Shown here one piece after another: positions 1,943 through 17,611 of a DNA stretch of 64,000 nt (position 1 is the stretch's first letter; each line of letters starts with the position of its first letter). The notes under the pieces are model-generated. The model had not been told where the DNA came from and ran no database searches. It saw only the letters and a list, made by a program, of their open reading frames with translations. The translations under genes and the position numbers were made by a program. The stretch lies in the NCBI GenBank assembly GCA_963708525.1, contig CAVPTH010000009.1, positions 94,648 to 158,647 on the forward strand, in the 5' to 3' direction. Source of the stretch: an uncultured Verrucomicrobiae bacterium (GTDB lineage: Bacteria > Verrucomicrobiota > Verrucomicrobiia > Limisphaerales > UBA11358).

Positions 1943-2987
1943 ATGGAAAGCCGCCTCTTTCATTTAAGATGCACACCGCTTTTGGTTCTGGCGGCGATGG
2001 TAGCGGTGCCCTTTGCCAGGGCGGAACCGCCGACAACCAATGCCTGGAAGCCGATTATTTTTTCGACGCCGGACAACAACGTGATTTCCTCCAACCCGAC
2101 CTCGCCCTCAACCCAACCGGTGCTGCCGGCGAATCTGCAAGGGAGCCTGTTTGATAACACTACGCCGGTGCCTTCTTTCAATTTTGGTCCGGCACCCGCT
2201 CCGGACGCAGGGCGGCGGGTCCAAAAAAAAATCCGACGACCGTGCGGATTGGGCTTTCCAGACCCCCGCAGAAATTATGGGGGTGGCACCGGAACAAATA
2301 CTGTCAAACGGGAAACGAAACGACGATGGTCGGCAGAAAAACCTGACCCCGCTTGAACGTTACCTGGAAGGACGGAACCCGGGTTCCAAATCCAGGTCGA
2401 ATCCCTCCTCATCCCAGAACTACCGGGGAGGTGAAAATGCCCAGACCAATAGTGACGACTTTTCTTCTGATCAGATGAACGCGGGCTGGGGCGACCTGCA
2501 GTCGTCCGCTACTCCCGGTCAGCCTTTAAACGCCATGCCGAATACGGTAGTGGTTAACAATTTGTTTGGTAACCCGAATCAAGATTCCGTCTGGGGGAAT
2601 GCATTGGGCTCGCCGGCGCCGCAGCCTGCTCAAAACCCCGTCAACGCCCTGCAACAACAGGCGGACATGGACCAGTTCCGGCGAATGCTTAATCCGGGCT
2701 TGGTACCAGCCACCGCGACTGCCATCGTACCGGACAGCGCCCCATCGCTTAAATCGCAAATCGCTCTGCCGTTTTCCAGTTCCACGCAACCGCTGGTCAA
2801 TCCGATCGGAGCCTCATTCGCTCCCTTAAACAGTGGCATTGGTCAACCGAGTCCTTTGACGCAACTTCCCGGCATTACCAGTCAGGCCAACATGCAATCC
2901 TCACTCGCGCCGGCCTGGGCGCCGCAACCCGCCCCCTGGACCTCACCCAATCCCCAGCCGTTCGCGGTTCCCCAGCGTAAATTCTGA
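1943..2987 (+). CDS. Secreted Pro/Gln/Asn/Ser-rich protein of unknown function; reading frame broken at an A9 run (2223-2231)
   Basis: ORF 1943-2356 carries a signal peptide (LLVLAAMVAVPFARAEP). ORF 2151-2987 only looks protein-like after the A9 run. Removing one A joins ..APDAGRRVQKK to SDDRADWAFQTPAEIMGV... Confidence 0.55.
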
Positions 2988-3001
2988 GCCGGCAACGCTA
3001 A

Positions 3002-4738
3002 TCAGTGCGACGAGGTCATCACGAGGACCTGTTCCAGGGTGGAGACACCCTCCCGGGCACGATCCATGGCGACCATGCGCAAGGTGCGCATACCCTGGCT
3101 GATGGCCACCTTGGCCAATTCACGCGTATTGGCCCGCGCGATGACGAGTTTACGGATTTGATCGGAGATGGTCATGGCCTCAATGACCGCGAGGCGCCCG
3201 CTGTACCCGGAATTCTTGCAGCGCTCGCAACCGCGCCCGCGATAAAGTTGCAGGCCTTCGAGCGTGGCGGGATCGATACCGAGGTCCTCGAACATCTTTG
3301 GAGGATAGGTCACCGGTTCCTTGCAATGCGGGCAGATGCGGCGCATCAGGCGTTGGGCACAGGAGAGAATCACGGAGGAGGAGATCAAAAACGGGGCGAT
3401 GCCCATGTCATCCAGCCGGGCGATGGCGCCCGGGGCGTCATTGCAATGCATGGTACTGAGCACCTGATGGCCGGTGAGCGCGGCTTCAATGGCGATTTCG
3501 GCGGTCTCGGTGTCACGGATTTCCCCGATCATGATGATGTCCGGGTCCTGGCGGAGAATCGAACGCAACGCGTTGGCGAAGGTCAGGCCGATTTCCTTCT
3601 TGGTAGGCACCTGATTGATGCCGGGAATCTGAAATTCCACCGGGTCTTCCACGGTGACGATGTTGTAAATGGGGTTGTTGAGTTCGTTCAACGCGGAGTA
3701 AAGCGTTGTCGTTTTGCCCGAACCGGTCGGGCCGGTGACGAGAATCAATCCGTGTGGAGCTTCAATGGCGTTCTTGACTTGTTTGAAAGTTTCGGCATCC
3801 AATCCCAGTTTGTCGATGCTGGCGGAAAGATTGGTCTTGTCCAATACGCGCAACACGATTTTTTCGCCGTGCACGGTGGGCAACACCGAAACGCGCAGGT
3901 CGTAGTCCTTGCCACCCACCCGCACCCGCATGCGGCCGTCCTGGGGCAAACGACGTTCGGCGATGTCGAGACTGCTCATGATTTTGAACCGCGAGGCCAG
4001 GGCCAGCTGCATTTGCTTGGGTGGCGGTGTGGCATCAATCAACACACCGTCGACGCGGTAACGCAACCGCATGGTTTTCTCGAACGGCTCCAGGTGCACG
4101 TCACTGGCGTGATCCTTGATGGCCTGAACAACGATCAGGTTGGCCAGCTTGATGACCGGCGCCTCGCCACTGGAGGCAGCCAGTTGGTCGAGGTTGACCT
4201 CTTCCAGGGTTTCTTTGATCGTTTCAATCGAGGCGTCTTCATCATTCTCACGCTGTTTTTCAGCGTCTTGAATGATATCTTCCATCGAACTTCCTTTGGC
4301 GGAATCGATCGCAGCCAGTTTGTCCACGATGGCTTTTTCCGAGGCAATCAGCGGGGCAATTTCCAGGCGGGTCAGGCGCTTGACGTCGTCGAGGGCCAGC
4401 ACATTCAATGGGTCGGCCATGGCCAGAAACAACTTGTTTTCCAGCCGTGATACGGGAACCACCTTGTAATTATGCGCGGCATCCCGCGGCAACAAATCGG
4501 CAATTTCCAGGGGAACCGTCAGCCGGGCGAGATTGATGGAAGGCACATTCAGAACACGGCCCATGGAAACCGTCAAATCCTGTTCGCTGACATAGGCTTT
4601 CTCGATGATCAGTTTGACCAGTCGCGTGCCCCCCTTTTTTTGTTCCTCCAGCAGTGACTCCACCTGTTGGGCCGTCAACAAGCCATCCTCGACCAGGGCG
4701 TCGGCAATGCGTTCTCCGAATGATTTGACTTTGGCCAT
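3002..4738 (-). CDS. pilB: Type IV pilus / type II secretion ATPase (PilB/GspE family)
   Basis: 578 aa with an N-terminal T2SE_Nter/MshEN-like domain, Walker A GPTGSGKTTT, Asp/His boxes and a C-terminal CPHC...CERC zinc tetracysteine. Confidence 0.93.
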   Translation of the reverse strand: MAKVKSFGERIADALVEDGLLTAQQVESLLEEQKKGGTRLVKLIIEKAYVSEQDLTVSMGRVLNVPSINLARLTVPLEIADLLPRDAAHNYKVVPVSRLENKLFLAMADPLNVLALDDVKRLTRLEIAPLIASEKAIVDKLAAIDSAKGSSMEDIIQDAEKQRENDEDASIETIKETLEEVNLDQLAASSGEAPVIKLANLIVVQAIKDHASDVHLEPFEKTMRLRYRVDGVLIDATPPPKQMQLALASRFKIMSSLDIAERRLPQDGRMRVRVGGKDYDLRVSVLPTVHGEKIVLRVLDKTNLSASIDKLGLDAETFKQVKNAIEAPHGLILVTGPTGSGKTTTLYSALNELNNPIYNIVTVEDPVEFQIPGINQVPTKKEIGLTFANALRSILRQDPDIIMIGEIRDTETAEIAIEAALTGHQVLSTMHCNDAPGAIARLDDMGIAPFLISSSVILSCAQRLMRRICPHCKEPVTYPPKMFEDLGIDPATLEGLQLYRGRGCERCKNSGYSGRLAVIEAMTISDQIRKLVIARANTRELAKVAISQGMRTLRMVAMDRAREGVSTLEQVLVMTSSH

Positions 4739-5927: not shown

Positions 5928-8900
5928 TTGCTTCGTACTAACCTCGGCCGCAGCCTGGCCCGGCGCCGCGAAATTATCGCCGGCCACGCCGGCGGAGCCG
6001 GTCACGCCGGCACTTCCTGGCATGACCTGCCCATGCAGAAAAAGGGCGACACCTGGGAAATCGAATTGCCGCTGGCCGAGGTCGGCTTTTTCAAAGCCAA
6101 ACCTTATCTGCTGGACGCCAAAGGCTGGCAACACTGGCCGGAGGGACCCGATGTGGGCATCAGTGTTCATCCGGATTTTTGCCGTACCGCGAATACCATT
6201 TACTGCGCCTTCACCCGGCTCTTTGGAACGACTCGCACCGCTGCGATTGCCGTGGATCCACAGTTACAGTTTCAACTTAACCCCCTTGATTCCCAGGGTT
6301 ACACCGTTATTCCTCCGTCCGGTAAATTGCGCGACTTGACACGGCAGTTGCCTCATATCGTGCAAACACTCGGCTGCCGCCTCCTGCATCTGCTGCCCGT
6401 GCATCCAACGCCGACGACTTACGCACGGTTCGGACGATTTGGCAGTCCCTACGCCGCGCTGGATCTGACGGCGATCGATCCGGCACTCGCCGAATTCGAC
6501 CATCGCACTACCGCCATCGATCAGTTTTGCGAACTCACCACTGCGGCACATGCGCTCGGAGCACGGGTGTTCCTCGACATCGTCATCAATCACACCGGCT
6601 GGGGTGCCGTTCTGCAGGAAAATCATCCTGAATTTTTCCTGCGGCAACCCGACGGTGCTTTCGCCAGCCCGGGCGCGTGGGGGGTCACCTGGGGTGATCT
6701 GGTGGAATTGAAACAGGACGGCGTTGCGCTCTGGGATATCATCGCCGATGCGCTACTCACCTGGTGTCGCCGCGGAGTGGATGGTTATCGCTGTGACGCC
6801 GGCTACAAAATTCCCGTTCCGGCGTGGCAATACATCATCACCCGCGTTCAGGAGGAATTTCCCGAGGCCATCTTTCTGCTCGAGGGACTGGGCGGCTCCT
6901 GGGAGGCCACGGAAAATCTGCTCACCGAGGGTGGCATGCAATGGGCTTATTCCGAACTGTTTCAAAATTATTCCGGACAGGAGGTGGCTCAATACCTCGA
7001 TTACGCGCTGCGTCAGAGCGCGCGGGTCGGACTTTACGTGCATTACAGCGAAACGCATGACAACGAACGGCTCGCCAAACGTGGCCGGGCCTGGTCACTG
7101 CTGCGCAATCGCTTCTGTGCCTTGACCAGCATCAGCGGCGGGTTTGGGTTCACCTGCGGCGTGGAATGGCTCGCCGCCGAAAAGATCAAAGTTCACGACT
7201 GCACGGGCCTGGCCTGGGATAGTCATGACAATATCGTCCCCGATCTGGCGCAGTTGAACCGGCTGCTGGCCGACCATCCTTGCTTCTTCGATGGCGCAAT
7301 GCTCACCCGGCTAAGTACGCCCGATTCGCCGGTGTACGCCTTGTTGCGCGAGTCTTTCGAAGGCCAGGATTCCGTGGTTGTCCTGGTCAATACCGACGCG
7401 GAAAAGGAAAATTCCATCACCATCATGGACCCGGAAAACCGGGTTCCGAATTGTAAAATTGAATTACTTGGCCAGTCGCTGCCGAAAACGGTCATGGACG
7501 GCAGCCAAATGACATTCACCCTCCCGGCGGGGGCTTGTCATTGCCTCGCGCCGACGCCGCAACCGCAGGGGATGAGCAGTGATGCCTATCGCCGCGCCCG
7601 GGCTCAAGCCGCGTTTGCCATCCAGGCGATGAGTTGGGTTTTACCAATCCAGACGATTCCGAATTTCCCCTGGCAGGAACTCGCGGGCCTGATTGATAAT
7701 ACTCCAGGCCAATTCCTCGCCGCCATCACCTGTCTGGCAGGCGAATTTTCCGGGGCTGAAAGGAACCATTCCGAAATTACGGCGATGACAGCCCGGTTGA
7801 TGGCACTTGCGAAATCGCTGCAAAAATATCCTTCAGTCGTTGAGTGGACGTTGATCGATCAACGCCGGATTACACTCGTGCCACCGGATCATTGGTTGCT
7901 GGTTGAAGACAGCGCGCCTTTTCGAGCCAGGCTGGCAACCAGAAACGGGAATGGTTCAGTGCAAACACCGGAACATGTCCAATCCATCGGCGTTCGCAGC
8001 GGTTACGTCGCCTGTTTCCCGCCCCGGGCAAATACAGCGGAAGCGGAATTGGTCCTGGAACGTTATGCCGCAATATCACAAAAGGTTTCCGCGACGGTCC
8101 GTTTTCTTCCGGCGGGACCGGAATCCGGTATCTGGAATCCGAAATCCGAAGCCGTGGTTCTTTTGACCAACGGCATTGGCGGCATGGCCCGCATTCGCGT
8201 GGACCTCGGCCGCATTCATTCCAAGTACGACTGCGTATTGGGTGCGAATCTGGATCCGAACGTGCCGGTGGACCGGCATATTTTTGTCAAACGCATCCGC
8301 GCCTGGGTGAATGCCGACGGTTTTCTCTCGCCTCTGGACGCAAAAAACCTGTCCTCGTTCGCAGCGGGTCCCCCGGCGATCTGGAAATTTGTCGCCGATG
8401 CCGGTGACGGGCGCACCGTCGAGATCGGGTTGCGTGCCGAAATGCTCGCGGGCAAAAATACAACGGTCCTGCAATTCAGCCGGCCGACCGCCGAACGTGC
8501 CTGTGGGAAGCAATTGCCTGCTGCCGCCGATGTGCGTCTGACCGTGCGGTTTGATATTGAGGATCGGAATTTTCATTGGGAAACCAAACGCAACGGCGGG
8601 TCGGATTACCATTTTTCAACAAACACTCACACGCTGCCGGCCTCGGGACCCGGGAACGACGATTCGATTTGTGGTTTTGCTTTTACACCGGCGGCCGATC
8701 GCCGATTGCGTATATTCGCGAACGCCGGCGAATACCATCCGCAGCCGGAGTGGAGTGAAAATATCCCACACCCGGCCGAACTGAGCCGCGACCAGACCGG
8801 CAGCGGTGATGCCTACAGCCCGGGCTGGTTTGAGATCCCATTGTCCCAGGGCGCAACGGTAACGCTGGTCGCAACGGCAGACATGGAGGAATCCCTTCTC

Positions 8901-12066: not shown

Positions 12067-13133
12067 AGATTCTGGTCATTTCCCTCGCCGGTATCGGCGA
12101 CACACTCATTGCCACTCCGTTGATCCGCGAGCTGCGCGAGAATTTTCCCGGGGTGACCATTGATGCGTTCGTCAGGTGGCCCGGAGCGAAAGATTTGCTG
12201 GAACATAATCCGAACGTCAACCGCGTGTTTCAGAAAGACCTCATCTCCTGTGGAAAATTCGAGGTGGTGCGTTTCTTCCGGTCATTGCGTCGGGAACGTT
12301 ACCAGCTTTCCATCAATACACATCCGCAGGGCCCAAGGCTCTATCGCGTCGCCGCCTGGCTGGCCGGTGCGGAAGTCCGCATCAGTCATGAATATGAGCG
12401 TTTTTCCTGGATCGACCGGTTGCTGATGACCGGCTCGCTGCCGCAGGATTATTCGCGACACTCGATTGAGAACAATTTCGACGTGTTGCCGTTGATTGGT
12501 GCGAAGAAAAAACTGGCAGCGCATGAGATGGAATTTTATCTCGAACCGGGTGATGTACGGCTGGCGGGTGATTTTCTGGCCAGACACAATTTATCCGGCC
12601 AGAAGCTCCTGGGGATCCACGTCGGTTCCGGTGGAACCAAGAATCTCCGGCTCAAACGCTGGCCGTTGAAAAACCACGCCGGCCTGGTGCGACGGTTGAA
12701 CCAGAAACGGCCGGACATCCGGATCTTGCTTTTCGGCGGGCCGGAAGAAATCAAGGATCATCCGGTCGTGCTCGCCCAGGCGAATCCCGTTCTGACACTG
12801 GAAGTTAAAACTGAAAACCTGCGGCAGACCGCGGCATTGATGAAACGATGCCATGCCTTTTTGAGTGTCGACACCGTGCTCATGCATGTCGCGGCGGCAA
12901 TGAAAGTACCCCATCAGATTGTCATCGAAGCGCCCACCCTGAATGCGACCAACCTGCCTTATGGCAACGCGTTTACTCTGGTGAAAAACCCCGTCTTGGC
13001 GGGACGAAACCTGAATTATTACCGTTACGATGGCGGTGATATCAAAGGAACGCACGAAGAACTGGTGGCGTGCATGGCGTCCATCACCATCGACAACGTT
13101 TATGACGCAGTAAACAGGCTGATTCAGCCCTGA
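12063..13133 (+). CDS. Glycosyltransferase family 9 (heptosyltransferase-like)
   Basis: 356 aa. N-terminus MKILVISLAGIGDTLIATPLIRELRENFPG and GGPEE...D..LMHVAAA are typical of GT9. Confidence 0.85.
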   Translation: MKILVISLAGIGDTLIATPLIRELRENFPGVTIDAFVRWPGAKDLLEHNPNVNRVFQKDLISCGKFEVVRFFRSLRRERYQLSINTHPQGPRLYRVAAWLAGAEVRISHEYERFSWIDRLLMTGSLPQDYSRHSIENNFDVLPLIGAKKKLAAHEMEFYLEPGDVRLAGDFLARHNLSGQKLLGIHVGSGGTKNLRLKRWPLKNHAGLVRRLNQKRPDIRILLFGGPEEIKDHPVVLAQANPVLTLEVKTENLRQTAALMKRCHAFLSVDTVLMHVAAAMKVPHQIVIEAPTLNATNLPYGNAFTLVKNPVLAGRNLNYYRYDGGDIKGTHEELVACMASITIDNVYDAVNRLIQP

Positions 13134-13138
13134 TAAAA

Positions 13139-13858
13139 CTACAAAGCAAATCCCGCCGCCTTGGCGTCGGCCGCAAACGTCTTTACGGTGTCCAGCGACA
13201 TTTCCGGCAGCCCCGTCCCGACCAGCTTCATCGCCTTGTTCAAAATATCGTGCGGCACGGTGACAATTTTGCAGCCGCATTCCTCCGCTTGAAAAATATT
13301 CAATACTTCACGCACGCTGGCCCAGAGCAGTTCGGCCTCGGGCAACCCCGCCAGGATTTTATTGGCCTTCACCATGTGCGGCATCGGATCCTGCCCGACA
13401 TCGGCAATACGCCCGGCAAACACCGAAACCACGGCGGGCACTTTGGGATTGAGCGCCTTCGCAACCCCGGCGATCTGTTCCTCGGTGAAAATGGCGGTGA
13501 TATTGAGCTTCACGCCTTCGCCGGCCAGCTCGCGCACGAGCGACAATGAAGATTCGCTGCGCGTGTTGGTGATGGGAATCTTGACATAGACATTCTTCGC
13601 CCAGTCCTTGATTTTCAGCGCCTGCCGCCGCATTTCCGGAAATTCATCAGAGAATACTTCGAAGGAAATCGGCTTTCCCGTGATGCTTTTCAATATGTCC
13701 CGCGCGAACGCCTCGTAATCGTGCACTCCCACTTTGCGCATCAGCGTGGGGTTGGTCGTCATGCCCTTGATCAGCGGGTTGTTGTTCAACTGAAGCATTC
13801 CGGCTTTATCCGCACCATCGGCAAAAAGTTTGATCTTGAGACTGGCCAAATTTTTCAT
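13139..13858 (-). CDS. tal: Short-form transaldolase / fructose-6-phosphate aldolase family
   Basis: Start set at MKNLASLKIKLFADGAD. Has GMTTNPTLM and VYVKIPITN motifs. Confidence 0.85.
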   Translation of the reverse strand: MKNLASLKIKLFADGADKAGMLQLNNNPLIKGMTTNPTLMRKVGVHDYEAFARDILKSITGKPISFEVFSDEFPEMRRQALKIKDWAKNVYVKIPITNTRSESSLSLVRELAGEGVKLNITAIFTEEQIAGVAKALNPKVPAVVSVFAGRIADVGQDPMPHMVKANKILAGLPEAELLWASVREVLNIFQAEECGCKIVTVPHDILNKAMKLVGTGLPEMSLDTVKTFAADAKAAGFAL

Positions 13859-13896: not shown

Positions 13897-14466
13897 TTAT
13901 TTCACTTCCGCCAGGATGATTTCAGCCGCTTCCAGCAGGTTTTTGACACAAAAATCAGGTAGCCGCTTCAAGTCTTCCGCATAACCGCGATCAATAAAAA
14001 TGGTCCGGCAACCGGCCGCGTGGCCACAATCCACATCACGCCAGCGGTCGCCCACCATCCAGCTTTGCGCGAGGTCAATGCCCAGTTCGCGCGCCGCACG
14101 CAGCAACATGCCCGGTTTGGGCTTGCGACAGTCGCAATCCGACAAATCCTTTCCCGGGTGATAACAAACTTCCACCCGGTCGAGCGGCAACCGCCGGCGC
14201 ATCTCCGCGTGAATCTCCTCGACCGCTTGCTGTTTTAAAGTGCCACGGCCGACGTCCGGTTGATTGGTCGCCACCACGAGCAGAAAACCCGACTGTTTCA
14301 AACGACGGCAGGCCTCCGGCACCTCGGGAAAGATTTCAAATTCGCTTAAATCCGCTGACGGATACGGTTTGCCATCGCGTTCCAGGGCACGGTTGATGAC
14401 GCCATCCCGGTCGAGAAAAACAGCGCGCGCGCCAGGGGACTTCTGAGTTTTAGAGATTTCAGACAT
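13897..14466 (-). CDS. gmhB: D-glycero-D-manno-heptose 1,7-bisphosphate phosphatase (HAD-IIIA)
   Basis: AVFLDRDGVIN (DxDGxxN), VVATNQPDVGRG, C..CDCRKPKPGML and VGDRWRDV. Confidence 0.88.
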   Translation of the reverse strand: MSEISKTQKSPGARAVFLDRDGVINRALERDGKPYPSADLSEFEIFPEVPEACRRLKQSGFLLVVATNQPDVGRGTLKQQAVEEIHAEMRRRLPLDRVEVCYHPGKDLSDCDCRKPKPGMLLRAARELGIDLAQSWMVGDRWRDVDCGHAAGCRTIFIDRGYAEDLKRLPDFCVKNLLEAAEIILAEVK

Positions 14467-14475
14467 TGGCGCGCG

Positions 14476-14507
14476 AATGACTAATGACTAAAACCTAATG
14501 ACGAATC
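14476..14507. repeat. Left imperfect inverted repeat flanking the four-helix-bundle gene
   Basis: AATGACTAATGACTAAAACCTAATGACGAATC pairs with the reverse complement of 14921-14956. 29 of 32 positions match, with one 4-nt indel. Confidence 0.8.
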
Positions 14508-14550
14508 AATGCCGAACCGCGAAGAATAAAGATAATAAAGGGAACCCATC

Positions 14551-14934
14551 TCATGACTTCCTCCAGATTGCGGCAAAAATAAGGTGTAATTCCTTTGCTT
14601 CCCGCCAAAGTTTGCGAGCGTCGGTCTTCAATTCCGGTTCAGCAGAGACAATCATCCGTAACCAAAGCTTGGTTTCGCGCGACTCTTTCCGACAGGTCCC
14701 AATCTTATTTTTGAAATCCTTTTTAGAAACCGCGTCATCTGCCTCGCAATAATTTGCCGCCACGCTTGTTCCAGAGCGGACGAACTGATCAATCAAGGGC
14801 AGAGTCACGGTATTCTTGGGAACCGTTTTGGCAAAACGAATCACAGCTTCGCCAAATACTGCGGTGCGTTCTTCCAAATCAAATGAAGTCCGCCCATTGG
14901 GTTTGTCATTCGGAATTGGAGATTCATTAGTCAT
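14551..14934 (-). CDS. Four-helix-bundle protein (23S rRNA intervening-sequence protein / Avd family, TIGR02436/PF05635-like)
   Basis: 127 aa. ..QFVRSGTSVAANYCEADDAVSKKDFKNKIGTCRKESRETKLWLRMI matches the family signature (RSGTS.GANY.EA...SK.DF..K....KE..ET..WL). Confidence 0.85.
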   Translation of the reverse strand: MTNESPIPNDKPNGRTSFDLEERTAVFGEAVIRFAKTVPKNTVTLPLIDQFVRSGTSVAANYCEADDAVSKKDFKNKIGTCRKESRETKLWLRMIVSAEPELKTDARKLWREAKELHLIFAAIWRKS

Positions 14935-14956
14935 TAGGGTTTAGGAATTAGTCATT
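14921..14956. repeat. Right imperfect inverted repeat flanking the four-helix-bundle gene (contains its start codon and overlaps the gmhA stop)
   Basis: GATTCATTAGTCATTAGGGTTTAGGAATTAGTCATT. Its reverse complement aligns to 14476-14507. Confidence 0.8.
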
Positions 14957-15548
14957 TCGTAGACTCCCACTTGGTTTGGGCGACTTTAAGCTTTGGGTGG
15001 GAGACGAACAAATGCCAGATGACAGCCTGAAACGCCTCGCTGTGGGGCGTGATGTGTTCCGGGTTTACCGTCGGCACAATCACACAGGCTGTTGCTTCTT
15101 TGGCCGTGTAGCCACCGTCGCGTCCCACAATGCCAATAACGGAAGCACCGGCTTTTTTTGCGACTTGAATGGCGCTGACCAAATTCGGACTGACATTCTT
15201 CTCAAGATTGCCGCCACCCACCGAAAAAATCAGCAGACCGTCTTTTGCGTTCAGGCGGCTGCCCTTGAGCCATTCGGAAAAAATCGTTGCCCACCCTTCG
15301 TCATTGGTCCGCGCGGTCAACTCGGAAACATTGTCCGTGGGCGCGTAGGCCTCGAAACCGCAGATTTTGCGGAAGTCATTGACGGCATGGCCGGCGTTGC
15401 CCGCACTGCCGCCGACGCCAAGGATGAACAGGCGCCCGCCGCGTTCGCGTACGCGTGCCAGTTCCCCGGCGGCCTTTTCAATGGCGTCAACATTCAGTTG
15501 CGCGACAACTTGTGATACTTCCCCCAGAAATTCTTTTGCAAAGCTCAT
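14952..15548 (-). CDS. gmhA: D-sedoheptulose 7-phosphate isomerase (SIS domain)
   Basis: 198 aa. GGRLFILGVGGSAGNAGHAVNDF and LLIFSVGGG are typical of GmhA. Confidence 0.9.
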   Translation of the reverse strand: MSFAKEFLGEVSQVVAQLNVDAIEKAAGELARVRERGGRLFILGVGGSAGNAGHAVNDFRKICGFEAYAPTDNVSELTARTNDEGWATIFSEWLKGSRLNAKDGLLIFSVGGGNLEKNVSPNLVSAIQVAKKAGASVIGIVGRDGGYTAKEATACVIVPTVNPEHITPHSEAFQAVIWHLFVSHPKLKVAQTKWESTK

Positions 15549-15589
15549 GGTTTATTTTGGTCGGATGAAAACACAACCTTGTGAAAATT

Positions 15590-15716
15590 GAAATCCTAAT
15601 TCCTAAATCCGAATGACTAAAGAATGACGAAGCCTGAATAACAAATGGCAAGCCTGCAATGGTATTTGTCATTTGGAATTCTTTAGTCATTCGGATTTAT
15701 GATTTAGTCATTCCCG
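15590..15716. mobile_element. Gene-less palindromic (MITE-like) element related to the repeats around the four-helix-bundle gene
   Basis: A perfect 21-bp inverted repeat, AAATCCGAATGACTAAAGAAT, at 15605-15625 / 15678-15698 with a 52-nt loop. It shares GAATGACTAA and the 12-mer TTTAGGAATTAG with the cassette ends. An extra TTAGTCATTC at 15704-15713 overlaps the stop of the upstream gene. Confidence 0.6.
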
Positions 15717-16460
15717 TTGTCGTCGTTGAAGTAATTTTTCCAACTCGGCCAAACCTGCCGGCGAACCCATTTCGTAAAAGCGCTCGTGTACTTCGTAACC
15801 GGCCAGTTGCTTTTCATGGACGAGTTTGCCCATCACCCCGGCTAGATCGAATGGCTGGTCCGGGGCATAGGTATTGAAAACCAACGCCTTGAACAGGCTC
15901 AATCCGTAATCGATGTGCCGCATTTCCGGCCGGCGATTTTTCTTATCGTAAACTGCAATTTCCCCGTCGCGGAAGACCACATTGCTGGAATCATAGCGGC
16001 CTTCATTGCGATAGACGGTCATGCAACCGAGTTTGCCGCTGCGGCGGAAAAACTCCGCCACCGGACGATATTCCACTGGCAGATAGGAATCGCCATAGAG
16101 CACAAAAAATTCATCCCCCAGCAGTGGCAGAGCCTGTTTAACCGCGCCACCCGTACCGAGCAGCCGAGGACCACCCGCCGTTGCTACGCTCTGGCGCGGC
16201 GAGTCAAACGAATAATCGAGCTGTATGCCAAACGCCGAGCCGTCGCCAAAATCGCGCTGAATCATCTCACCCAAAAAGCCGACACACAATACGACCCGAC
16301 GAATGCCGCGCGCACGGAGCAGTTCGAGCTGGTGCGCCAGAAATGGTTTCCCGGCCACCGGTACCAGGGATTTGGGGATTTTCTCCGTGATGGGCCGCAG
16401 GCGCGTCGCGAGTCCACCGGCGAGAATGGCTACCGGAATTTCCAAAGCAGGAGATGTCAT
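15708..16460 (-). CDS. hddC: Sugar-phosphate nucleotidyltransferase, probably D-glycero-alpha-D-manno-heptose 1-phosphate guanylyltransferase (HddC-like)
   Basis: 250 aa. The N-terminus AILAGGLATRLRPITEKIPKSLVPVAGKPFL is the NTP_transferase signature. The specific function is inferred from adjacency to gmhA, gmhB and a GHMP kinase. Confidence 0.7.
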   Translation of the reverse strand: MTSPALEIPVAILAGGLATRLRPITEKIPKSLVPVAGKPFLAHQLELLRARGIRRVVLCVGFLGEMIQRDFGDGSAFGIQLDYSFDSPRQSVATAGGPRLLGTGGAVKQALPLLGDEFFVLYGDSYLPVEYRPVAEFFRRSGKLGCMTVYRNEGRYDSSNVVFRDGEIAVYDKKNRRPEMRHIDYGLSLFKALVFNTYAPDQPFDLAGVMGKLVHEKQLAGYEVHERFYEMGSPAGLAELEKLLQRRQRE

Positions 16461-16629: not shown

Positions 16630-17611
16630 TCACGAAATCAACAGCTTGGTCCCTTCAAAATCAAAACGGAACCGGACTTCCTTCAGACCTGTGTGGCGCA
16701 TCGCCTGGCGCAACCGGGCTTTGTCTTCCGCATAGAACATCAGAAAGCCGCCTCCACCAGCACCGATGAGTTTGCCACCCAAAGCACCGTTGGCCATGGC
16801 CAAATCGTACCACTCATTGATTTTCAAGTTGCTCATGCCGCCGCTCCGCTGTTTTTTTCTCTGCCAGTGAACGTCCATCAGCCGGGCAAATTCGGGCAGA
16901 TTTCCCGATTCCAGAGCACGCTGGCTTTGCATACCAAGGTCTTTGACGAAATGCAGGTTCTCAATCATGGCCGCGTCAGACTGCTTTGATTTCTGGTCCT
17001 GCTCTTTCAAAATGGCCGAGGCCGATCGCGAATAACCGGTAAAGAACAACAACAGATTATCTTCGAGATTGTCGCGCGTGTCGTCAGCGATCTTCAGCGG
17101 CCACGCCTCCACCTTGCCGTCCGGGAGAAATTTGAAGCAAGTGACACCGCCGTAAGCGGCGATGTATTGGTCCTGCTTGCCGATGGGTTCTTTGAGGCGA
17201 ACAAGCTCAATGTCACAGGCTTGCGCCGCCAGTTCGGCCGGATGAACGAGATTTTTCCGGTATGCATGCAGGACTTTGAGCAGTGCGGTCGTAAAACTTC
17301 CCGGAGGATCCCAGGCCTGTGCCTGCCGGAATATCAGCCATGGAGGCCAGTTCCAATCCACAACCATTCATTCCCAGCAGAGCGAAGGCTTCACGGATGA
17401 TGGGATGCTCGATCTTGTTGACATCAGTCACCCTTTCGAGCCGCGAATATTTCAGGATCAAGTCGGGCGTGAAATTGTCGTGCAACGTGATGTAAACATA
17501 TTTATCGATGGCAGCGGCGATGAGAAAACCGCCGAAATTCTGATAGTATGACGGCAAATCCGTGCCGCCACCGCCGAGCGTGACGCGAAGAGGAGAGCGT
17601 GCGATGATCAT
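16630..17611 (-). pseudogene. hddA: GHMP-family sugar kinase (HddA-like D-glycero-alpha-D-manno-heptose 7-phosphate kinase), split by a 1-nt frameshift in GHMP motif II
   Basis: ORF 17213-17611 ends ..DIPAGTGLGSSG then goes out of frame. ORF 16630-17367 continues SFTTALLKVLHAY... Deleting one A from GGGAAGTTT (complement of about 17297-17302) restores PAGTGLGSSGSFTTALL. The C-terminal GAGGGGFLMFY motif III is present. Confidence 0.8.

Follow-up and report, generated by a model that had tools for sequence, protein, structure and literature searches.

The 23S rRNA intervening sequence (IVS) of Coxiella is 428 nt long, is closed by a 28-bp terminal inverted-repeat stem that RNase III cuts, and carries an S23p open reading frame (ORF) in its loop; three tandem heptamers (GACAGAT) lie just 5′ of the ORF start, and mobility has long been suspected (PMC4990558). 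ORFs of the same 23S_rRNA_IVP family also occur in 16S and 23S insertions of candidate phyla radiation (CPR) bacteria (PMC11270868) and between cmr3 and cmr2 (PMC3936711). This family, PF05635/TIGR02436, is large and has no known function, and since the IVS papers of the early 1990s it has been a puzzle that its members are dispersed over operons, rRNA genes, and cas loci. Intergenic heptamer repeats of the TAACTGA type, described in Beggiatoaceae, Cyanobacteria, and Bacteroidetes, form direct arrays, with one inverted case in 170 sets (PMC4679880). Here we analyze a 64-kb stretch of one genome, that of an uncultured Verrucomicrobiae bacterium (the window, to which positions refer unless a related locus is named), in which a 127-aa gene of this protein family, here called fhb for four-helix bundle, is bracketed by inverted arrays of tandem heptamers in the spacer between two sugar-pathway genes, gmhA and gmhB. 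We are highly confident that fhb together with its inverted heptamer arrays constitutes a discrete, family-wide cassette, and on balance we lean toward reading it as an IVS-like element that lives in operon spacers and whose RNA would be processed.

The ends of the cassette are tandem heptamer arrays, not unique terminal inverted repeats (TIRs). Tandem Repeats Finder resolved both arms into period-7 arrays of AATGACT, with 4.4 copies in the distal arm and 4.7 in the proximal arm. The two arm cores (Table 1), compared after reverse complementing the proximal one, agree in 29 of 32 positions once a single 4-nt gap is allowed, and a repeat search lengthened the arms to 55 nt at 75%. Seven copies of the 9-mer AATGACTAA are present in the 64 kb, against an expectation of 0.21, and all of them lie within 14476-15712. 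The arrays are closely fitted to the neighboring genes: the first heptamer of the proximal arm supplies the gmhA stop codon (TGA, 14952-14954), the fhb start codon (ATG, 14932-14934) lies in the same arm, and the gmhB start is 9 nt beyond the end of the distal arm. A first-pass annotation of this DNA had described the ORF, the imperfect inverted repeats around it, and a gene-less hairpin with a perfect 21-bp inverted repeat and a 52-nt loop in the next spacer. All of its coordinates and sequences were verified, although it had overlooked the period-7 heptamer nature of the arms.

The bracket recurs around relatives of the gene. A metagenome scan by protein motifs alone gave 80 loci with relatives 58-85% identical, 70 of them with sufficient flank, and a significant inverted repeat surrounded the gene in 65 of these 70. 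In the arms, the tandem heptamers follow the pattern AA-N-N-N-C-N (AATGACT, AATGACG, AATGACC, AATTTCT, AATTCCT, AAATCCG, and others), and the cassettes span about 430-680 nt, with the proximal arm at or just upstream of the start codon and the distal arm starting no more than about 130 nt past the stop. Against a locus-matched control of pseudo-genes set elsewhere in the same loci, the bracket score averaged 21.9 for real genes versus 9.0, and 30 of 31 real loci exceeded the control 99th percentile of 14.4; when the scoring was run within the window, just two high scores were obtained, both at the cassette/hairpin locus. Arms match their partner within one element (21.9) better than they match arms between elements (13.8; standard deviation, 5.6), with a same-orientation control at 10.3. 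The heptamer sequence follows the protein cluster and the genome G+C (flank G+C, 0.35-0.70), and the fhb-family gene is 2-14 points lower in G+C than its flanks at all but one of the 65 loci.

The same architecture extends to much more divergent copies. Among distant relatives (33-43% identical) on cyanobacterial and Chloroflexi plasmids, 10 of 11 lie within an inverted-repeat bracket, and in 9 of the 11 pairs the heptamers are quite unlike AATGACT, including AATTCAA and AATTCGT (perfect over 31 and 39 nt, respectively), CAAGTCG, AGTAAAA, and AATCCCC/AATCGTA. A scan of a genome collection for AATGACTAA-N12-AATGACTAA, in which the matches listed were mostly cyanobacterial (AATGACT)n arrays, yielded several gene-less hairpins and a Phycisphaerae metagenome-assembled genome (MAG; locus L050) with two cassettes in a single V-ATPase operon. 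The one in its A/B spacer (666-1335) combines AATGAC arms with a protein that shares 66% identity with that of the window, whereas the one in the B/D spacer (2669-3140) has a distant protein and ATTTCGG arms, the distal of which codes for the C terminus of the protein. What is new here is the inverted heptamer bracket as a trait of the whole family, in many phyla and intercistronic sites; no description of such a bracket around PF05635 genes was found in the literature searched, whose coverage was incomplete. At a further locus (L148), distinct PF05635 genes are neighbors at 237-899 and 939-1319, the upstream one being distantly related to the cassette gene (81 bits, PF05635).

Family cassettes live in intergenic, mostly intercistronic spacers, which they fill from the stop codon of one gene to a few bases before the start of the next. 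At most loci the upstream gene ends about −22 to +10 nt from the first heptamer, its stop often being the TGA of the heptamer, and the next gene usually starts 6-33 nt past the last heptamer; the distance to a flanking gene mostly falls between −22 and +40 nt. The fhb-family gene is mostly in the same orientation as its upstream neighbor. More than 15 unrelated intergenic sites are occupied among the relatives. Less similar copies lie in rpoB/rpoC, V-ATPase A/B and B/D, pyruvate:ferredoxin oxidoreductase (POR) alpha/beta, DUF1553/DUF1501, and DUF1800/DUF1501 pairs, or follow RNase Y, an ABC ATPase, MlaE, CoaC, or a NuoF-like gene. The plasmid copies (L210-L220; cyanobacteria, Chlorohelix) sit with their inverted heptamer bracket inside DISARM, BREX or restriction-modification (RM), and CRISPR-Cas operons, at drmD/pglX, helicase/methyltransferase, cas2/cas1, and csx2/cas1. 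Thus, the proposal of a cassette made in the first-pass annotation generalizes, with 65 of 70 relatives bracketed and many unrelated intergenic sites, and the repeat motif recurs with the same architecture in relatives and other phyla.

This diversity of contexts bears on the simplest explanation of the locus, namely, that fhb is a true member of the heptose operon, such as an accessory or regulatory subunit, and that the repeats are ordinary spacer. The block gmhA-fhb-gmhB-transaldolase is conserved though the rest of the operon differs, and fhb is strongly constrained, as heptose membership would have it. However, relatives 58-70% identical, plus one at 78% (L137), are found in unrelated contexts, the family is found also in rRNA insertions and cas operons, and the repeats are far from ordinary; the context diversity largely refutes this explanation, which we regard as highly improbable. 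Guilt by association is unsafe for the annotation of PF05635 genes, and both the reported link to cas genes (PMC3936711) and the position in the heptose operon look like hitchhiking.

The protein encoded by fhb is a four-helix-bundle protein of the PF05635/TIGR02436 (S23p, 23S_rRNA_IVP) family, as the first-pass annotation had proposed. It scores 65.9 bits against TIGR02436 (cutoff, 24) and 45.5 bits against PF05635 (cutoff, 33.8), and fold matches agree. The AlphaFold2 model (predicted local distance difference test [pLDDT] score, 83.6) has helices at residues 20-37, 44-66, 71-98, and 100-126. Foldseek placed 2RLD first (BT_0352; query-normalized template modeling [TM] score, 0.70; E = 3e-5), followed by 2GSC (Xcc0516) and then by Avd (4DWL); phmmer aligned fhb with 2RLD at an E value of 1.5e-10, and this solved relative has five chains. 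The motif of the PF05635 family is given as GxxRxxxSxxxNxxE (PMC3936711). Its RxxxSxxxNxxE portion is present in fhb as R53, S57, N61, and E64 within VRSGTSVAANYCE, and the leading G is absent; in the family alignment R53, S57, and N61 are invariant and E64 is nearly so. The proximal arm encodes the N terminus, MTNESPIPND, and residues 1-16 are disordered (pLDDT below 50). In some orthologues (L135, L139, and L141; proteins P0054 and P0102) the start codon is shifted out of the proximal arm and the protein begins MSGDGEQ instead of MTNESP; the repeat-encoded N terminus therefore appears dispensable. The predicted pI of fhb is 9.4 (range, about 9.4-9.6). The basic pI, together with the presence of its relative Avd in a solved ribonucleoprotein of a diversity-generating retroelement (DGR) (8UBE), makes nucleic acid binding plausible, and we tentatively suggest, with some doubt, that the protein may bind the heptamer arrays. 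PADLOC and PHROGs profiles gave no match to fhb, nor did a phage collection.

The cassette is an old resident of its site. Its acquisition in this Verrucomicrobiae clade is ancient, and it is now fixed in the gmhA-gmhB spacer under strong purifying selection. One homologue search with fhb returned about 8000 related clusters, of which the best 120 are 76-100% identical and some are labeled Verrucomicrobiae; all 4 homologues looked up among these best 120 have the same SIS and HAD genes on either side, also in operons that otherwise differ. Copies at least 73% identical are found between gmhA and gmhB, apart from two that depart in part: L137 has an unknown gene on one side and a convergent Zn-dehydrogenase gene on the other, and in L133 (80% identical) gmhB is kept downstream while gmhA was not detected upstream. 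Across the window and two orthologous loci (L001 and L007), the dN/dS of fhb is 0.03-0.08, with synonymous sites saturated (dS, 0.9-2.4), a constraint equal to that on gmhA and exceeding that on gmhB, hddC, and the transaldolase-family gene. The non-coding part of the proximal arm is 89-96% identical among orthologues and the distal arm 81-90%, whereas third codon positions in these orthologues are 48-76% identical, which indicates that the arms too are kept by selection. Given the fixed position and the conserved ORF and arms, this copy is not a recent landing. The picture of a cassette and its derivative between cistrons, given in the first-pass annotation, is supported, with the correction that this copy is ancient, and orthologous operons carry the same gene at the same site with the repeat signature present.

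Such conservation could also mean that the element is a domesticated regulatory module that no longer moves, whose arrays bind fhb or a host factor and thereby tune the translation or stability of the flanking cistrons. Selection on the ORF and both arms, the position fixed across the clade, and arms that retain their sequence and not complementarity alone all fit this explanation, as do the basic protein and a distal arm that ends 6-33 nt ahead of the downstream start at most loci. Such a module would also resemble the direct heptamer repeats in intergenic DNA of Beggiatoaceae, Cyanobacteria, and Bacteroidetes, for which a post-transcriptional role has been proposed, and in other phyla TAACTGA arrays are found immediately ahead of start codons (PMC4679880). 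Nonetheless, the same module stands between unrelated genes in many lineages, so that any role is not specific to heptose metabolism; the inverted pairing of arrays around the gene is left unexplained, and hairpins without a gene are conserved too. We therefore judge a purely regulatory module to be decidedly unlikely.

The gene-less hairpin in the hddC-gmhA spacer (E1) has a perfect 21-bp core, arms of 30 nt at 93%, and a 52-nt loop, and its predicted fold is better than that of shuffled sequence (z = −4.6). Its arms are homologous to those of the cassette (50 nt at 80% and 45 nt at 73%), and the hddC stop codon (TGA, 15708-15710) sits in its outermost GAATGAC. The hairpin is kept in five orthologous operons, where 45 pairs include 5 with compensatory change, and is missing from three others, in which hddC overlaps gmhA. 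A covariance model built on E1 matched E1 alone in the window (142.5 bits), even with filters off, and found many further hairpins in related loci, some of which have several per 6-8 kb. Pirellulales carry similar hairpins (at the sucC-sucD junction), as do other Verrucomicrobiota and Thermoguttaceae. At the convergent junction of the transaldolase (TAL) and glycosyltransferase-9 (GT9) genes, the spacer is 5 nt in the window (13131-13141) and 0 nt in L001, whereas in L007 (6836-6984) and L130 (4753-4903) a hairpin of about 150 nt fills the junction exactly between both stop codons. All four combinations of presence and absence occur across the E1 and TAL/GT9 sites, which points to repeated hairpin gain or loss. 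In addition, the fhb-gmhB spacers of L001 (5385-5509) and L007 (5385-5528) contain a complete extra hairpin with both arms, of whose counterpart the window has the distal arm (14476-14530) alone left.

In the first-pass annotation, E1 was taken to resemble a miniature inverted-repeat transposable element (MITE) derived from the cassette. Homologous arms and numerous, variable hairpins bear this out in part, no target-site duplication accompanies them, and a MITE-like derivative remains a plausible description; hairpins may have come from cassettes through deletion, or cassettes may have arisen within hairpins. A broader explanation along the same lines is that the whole element is a DNA transposable element, in which the arrays would be TIRs for a transposase or recombinase encoded elsewhere, the hairpins MITEs, fhb cargo or an accessory, and the RNA structure incidental. 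Inverted ends, numerous gene-less copies that vary at orthologous sites, cassettes in many unrelated sites, the lower G+C of the gene than of its flanks, and arm mismatches without sense-strand G·U bias are all consistent with transposition. On the other hand, target-site duplications, which the first-pass annotation had proposed to look for, were absent both from 19 cassette ends, where the comparison loses power because the array ends are fuzzy, and from the filled versus empty TAL/GT9 junctions. No transposase was found in the cassette or among its neighbors, which are housekeeping genes, the rest of the genome lying outside this search. Identical proteins in two different contexts would point to recent transposition, and none were seen among the copies looked up. 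Moreover, the ends are degenerate tandem arrays with no defined TIR, every insertion falls exactly between a stop and a start codon, and the phage collection holds no copies. Altogether, we consider a conventional transposon unlikely.

The reading that we prefer is that the cassette is the operon-spacer counterpart of an ORF-bearing 23S rRNA IVS. A promoter and terminator consensus scan of the cassette and hairpin in the window found nothing, and the cassette, without such signals of its own, would be co-transcribed with the operon. In the transcript, pairing of the arms would give a stem of about 30-50 bp with the ORF enclosed and its start codon hidden. Folding predictions agree with such a stem: the whole cassette folds better than shuffled sequence (z = −3.3), the arm duplex is predicted at −41.2 kcal/mol versus −14.2 ± 3.7 for shuffles, and the minimum-free-energy structure of the element has its 5′ and 3′ ends linked by 31 long-range pairs and the fhb AUG fully paired. 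A double-strand-specific RNase (RNase III) might then cut the stem, which would part the flanking cistrons and free the fhb message, and the element would survive only where an RNA cut is harmless, namely in the spacers that separate cistrons or at rRNA helix tips. Solved relatives of the basic protein are pentamers; it plausibly acts in this scheme by binding the heptamer arrays, and movement of the DNA by recombination between the ubiquitous arms is a guess. We regard the IVS-like RNA stem and its processing as possible, though somewhat short of probable.

Several findings weigh against this preferred reading. The arms are imperfectly matched (about 75-85%), and G·U-compatible mismatches are not in excess on the sense strand (58 versus 70), so that pairing in the sense RNA is not specifically supported; sequence conservation in both arms fits protein binding as well as it fits pairing. 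RNase III cleavage of cassette RNA is purely our inference. An Rfam scan that included rRNA families gave no match in the window or in the 80 related loci, and with no rRNA there the link to IVSs is one of architecture and protein family alone. Within the 64-kb window all copies of the repeat family are at one locus. The lack of duplications, of a transposase, and of identical dispersed copies counts here as well, and the mobility of the gene-bearing cassette is accordingly deduced from its distribution and was not seen.

The bracket offers a concrete, testable model that joins rRNA IVSs with stand-alone copies, and a strong clue to how the gene spreads; the model predicts RNase III-type processing sites within operons and nominates a nucleic acid target for the protein. 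A more far-reaching possibility is that PF05635 genes and inverted heptamer arrays form one hitherto unrecognized class of selfish element that yields both rRNA IVSs and stand-alone genes. The pentamer would then be a sequence-specific reader of its own arrays, with heptamers that co-vary with the protein subfamily, and would act in maintenance, RNA processing, or copying of the element. Any transcribed, cut-tolerant site could be colonized, thousands of stand-alone genes would be explained, and the hairpins would be non-autonomous derivatives. Taken jointly, with the pentamer reading its own arrays, site colonization, and hairpin derivatives all included, this extension seems to us rather doubtful.

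The features of the locus are collected in Table 1. On the minus strand the gene order is a split GHMP kinase, a nucleotidyltransferase (NTP-transferase), a SIS isomerase, the 127-aa ORF, a HAD-IIIA phosphatase, and a transaldolase-family gene. The neighbors matched the GmhB, GmhA, and HddC models with scores below the equivalog cutoffs, and the names used here are therefore family level. The frame of the GHMP kinase is broken near 17290-17300 by an apparent 1-nt insertion just after the GLGSSG motif (GGGAAGT, where GGGAGT restores the frame); its orthologues are unbroken at 326 aa, and the split copy is either a sequencing error or a pseudogene. A tRNA scan of the window found none.

Table 1. 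Coordinates of the cassette, the gene-less hairpin, and neighboring genes in the window
Feature	Position	Strand	Description
Whole cassette, 481 nt	14476-14956	-	Proximal arm, fhb, and distal arm; occupies the gmhA-gmhB spacer
Proximal (5′) arm	14902-14956 (core, 14921-14956)	-	AATGACT / AATTCCT / AAACCCT / AATGACT / AATGAAT
fhb, 127-aa four-helix-bundle protein	14551-14934	-	PF05635/TIGR02436, S23p/23S_rRNA_IVP family
Distal (3′) arm	14476-14530 (core, 14476-14507)	-	Plus strand reads AATGACT AATGACT AAAACCT AATGACG AATC
E1, gene-less hairpin, hddC-gmhA spacer	15582-15721	-	Arms 15596-15625 / 15678-15707; 52-nt loop
SIS-domain isomerase (GmhA-like)	14952-15548	-	Cistron upstream of the cassette; profile match
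HAD-IIIA phosphatase (GmhB-like)	13897-14466	-	Cistron downstream of the cassette; profile match
Nucleotidyltransferase (HddC/MurU-like)	15708-16460	-	Profile match; stop inside the outer E1 heptamer
GHMP kinase (HddA-like), split	16630-17611	-	Overlapping ORFs 17213-17611 and 16630-17367

Several described systems resemble parts of this element. The fhb protein shares a fold superfamily with Avd, in that 4DWL and 8UBE are among the fold matches of its predicted structure (TM normalized to the target, 0.66-0.78), and Avd, which is part of a ribonucleoprotein, is likewise small and basic; however, the likeness in sequence is marginal (11-16% identity; E = 0.055), and the nearest structures are the stand-alone S23p proteins 2RLD and 2GSC. 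No DGR reverse transcriptase was present among the genes within about 5 kb, which are sugar-pathway genes and oxidoreductases. With no reverse transcriptase gene nearby and a distant fold match, an identity of fhb as a DGR Avd was rejected. An integron cassette was rejected as well: the repeats flank the ORF and do not form a 3′ attC, the cassettes are single inside operons, and no integrase is nearby.

In common with cyanobacterial short tandemly repeated repetitive (STRR) and TAACTGA sequences, the arms are period-7 arrays in intergenic DNA of the same phyla, and often they end shortly ahead of a start codon (PMC4679880), but no inverted pairs bracketing a PF05635 gene have been reported for those repeats. 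Nostoc, Microcoleus, and Tychonema commonly carry long exact (AATGACT)n arrays (L010-L129; for example, L020 5018-5146, L046 2-120, and L092 5-125), and a hidden Markov model (HMM) search found fhb beside 1 of about 100 such loci among the matches listed (L097, ORF 7763-7999), which suggests that cyanobacterial AATGACT arrays are mostly independent of the gene. A Bacteroidia MAG (L019 1575-1790) carries about 30 copies of GTCATTG/GTCATTA.

The gene-less hairpins resemble MITEs and the repetitive extragenic palindromic sequences and bacterial interspersed mosaic elements (REP/BIME) in being short, AT-rich intergenic palindromes with many copies in relatives and variable occupancy of orthologous sites, and, as with MITEs, the gene-less copies share arms with a gene-bearing form. 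Unlike MITEs and REPs, they have no target-site duplication, no transposase or gene like that of a REP-associated tyrosine transposase (RAYT), and arms made of degenerate tandem heptamers, and the gene-bearing form codes for a four-helix bundle alone.

The comparison with the 23S rRNA IVSs of Coxiella burnetii and Leptospira goes further. The cassette stands between protein-coding cistrons, not within an rRNA helix; its gene is under strong purifying selection, whereas the Coxiella IVS ORF is decaying and probably untranslated; and cutting by RNase III is known for Coxiella but inferred for the cassette. In size the two are close (481 nt versus 428-444 nt for Coxiella), in both the inverted repeats at the termini make up a stem, here a predicted one, around an ORF of the same family, and in both tandem heptamers lie at the 5′ end beside the ORF start and ORF-less versions exist. 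Since the cassette lacks the location in rRNA that defines an IVS, we regard it as IVS-like and not as a true IVS.

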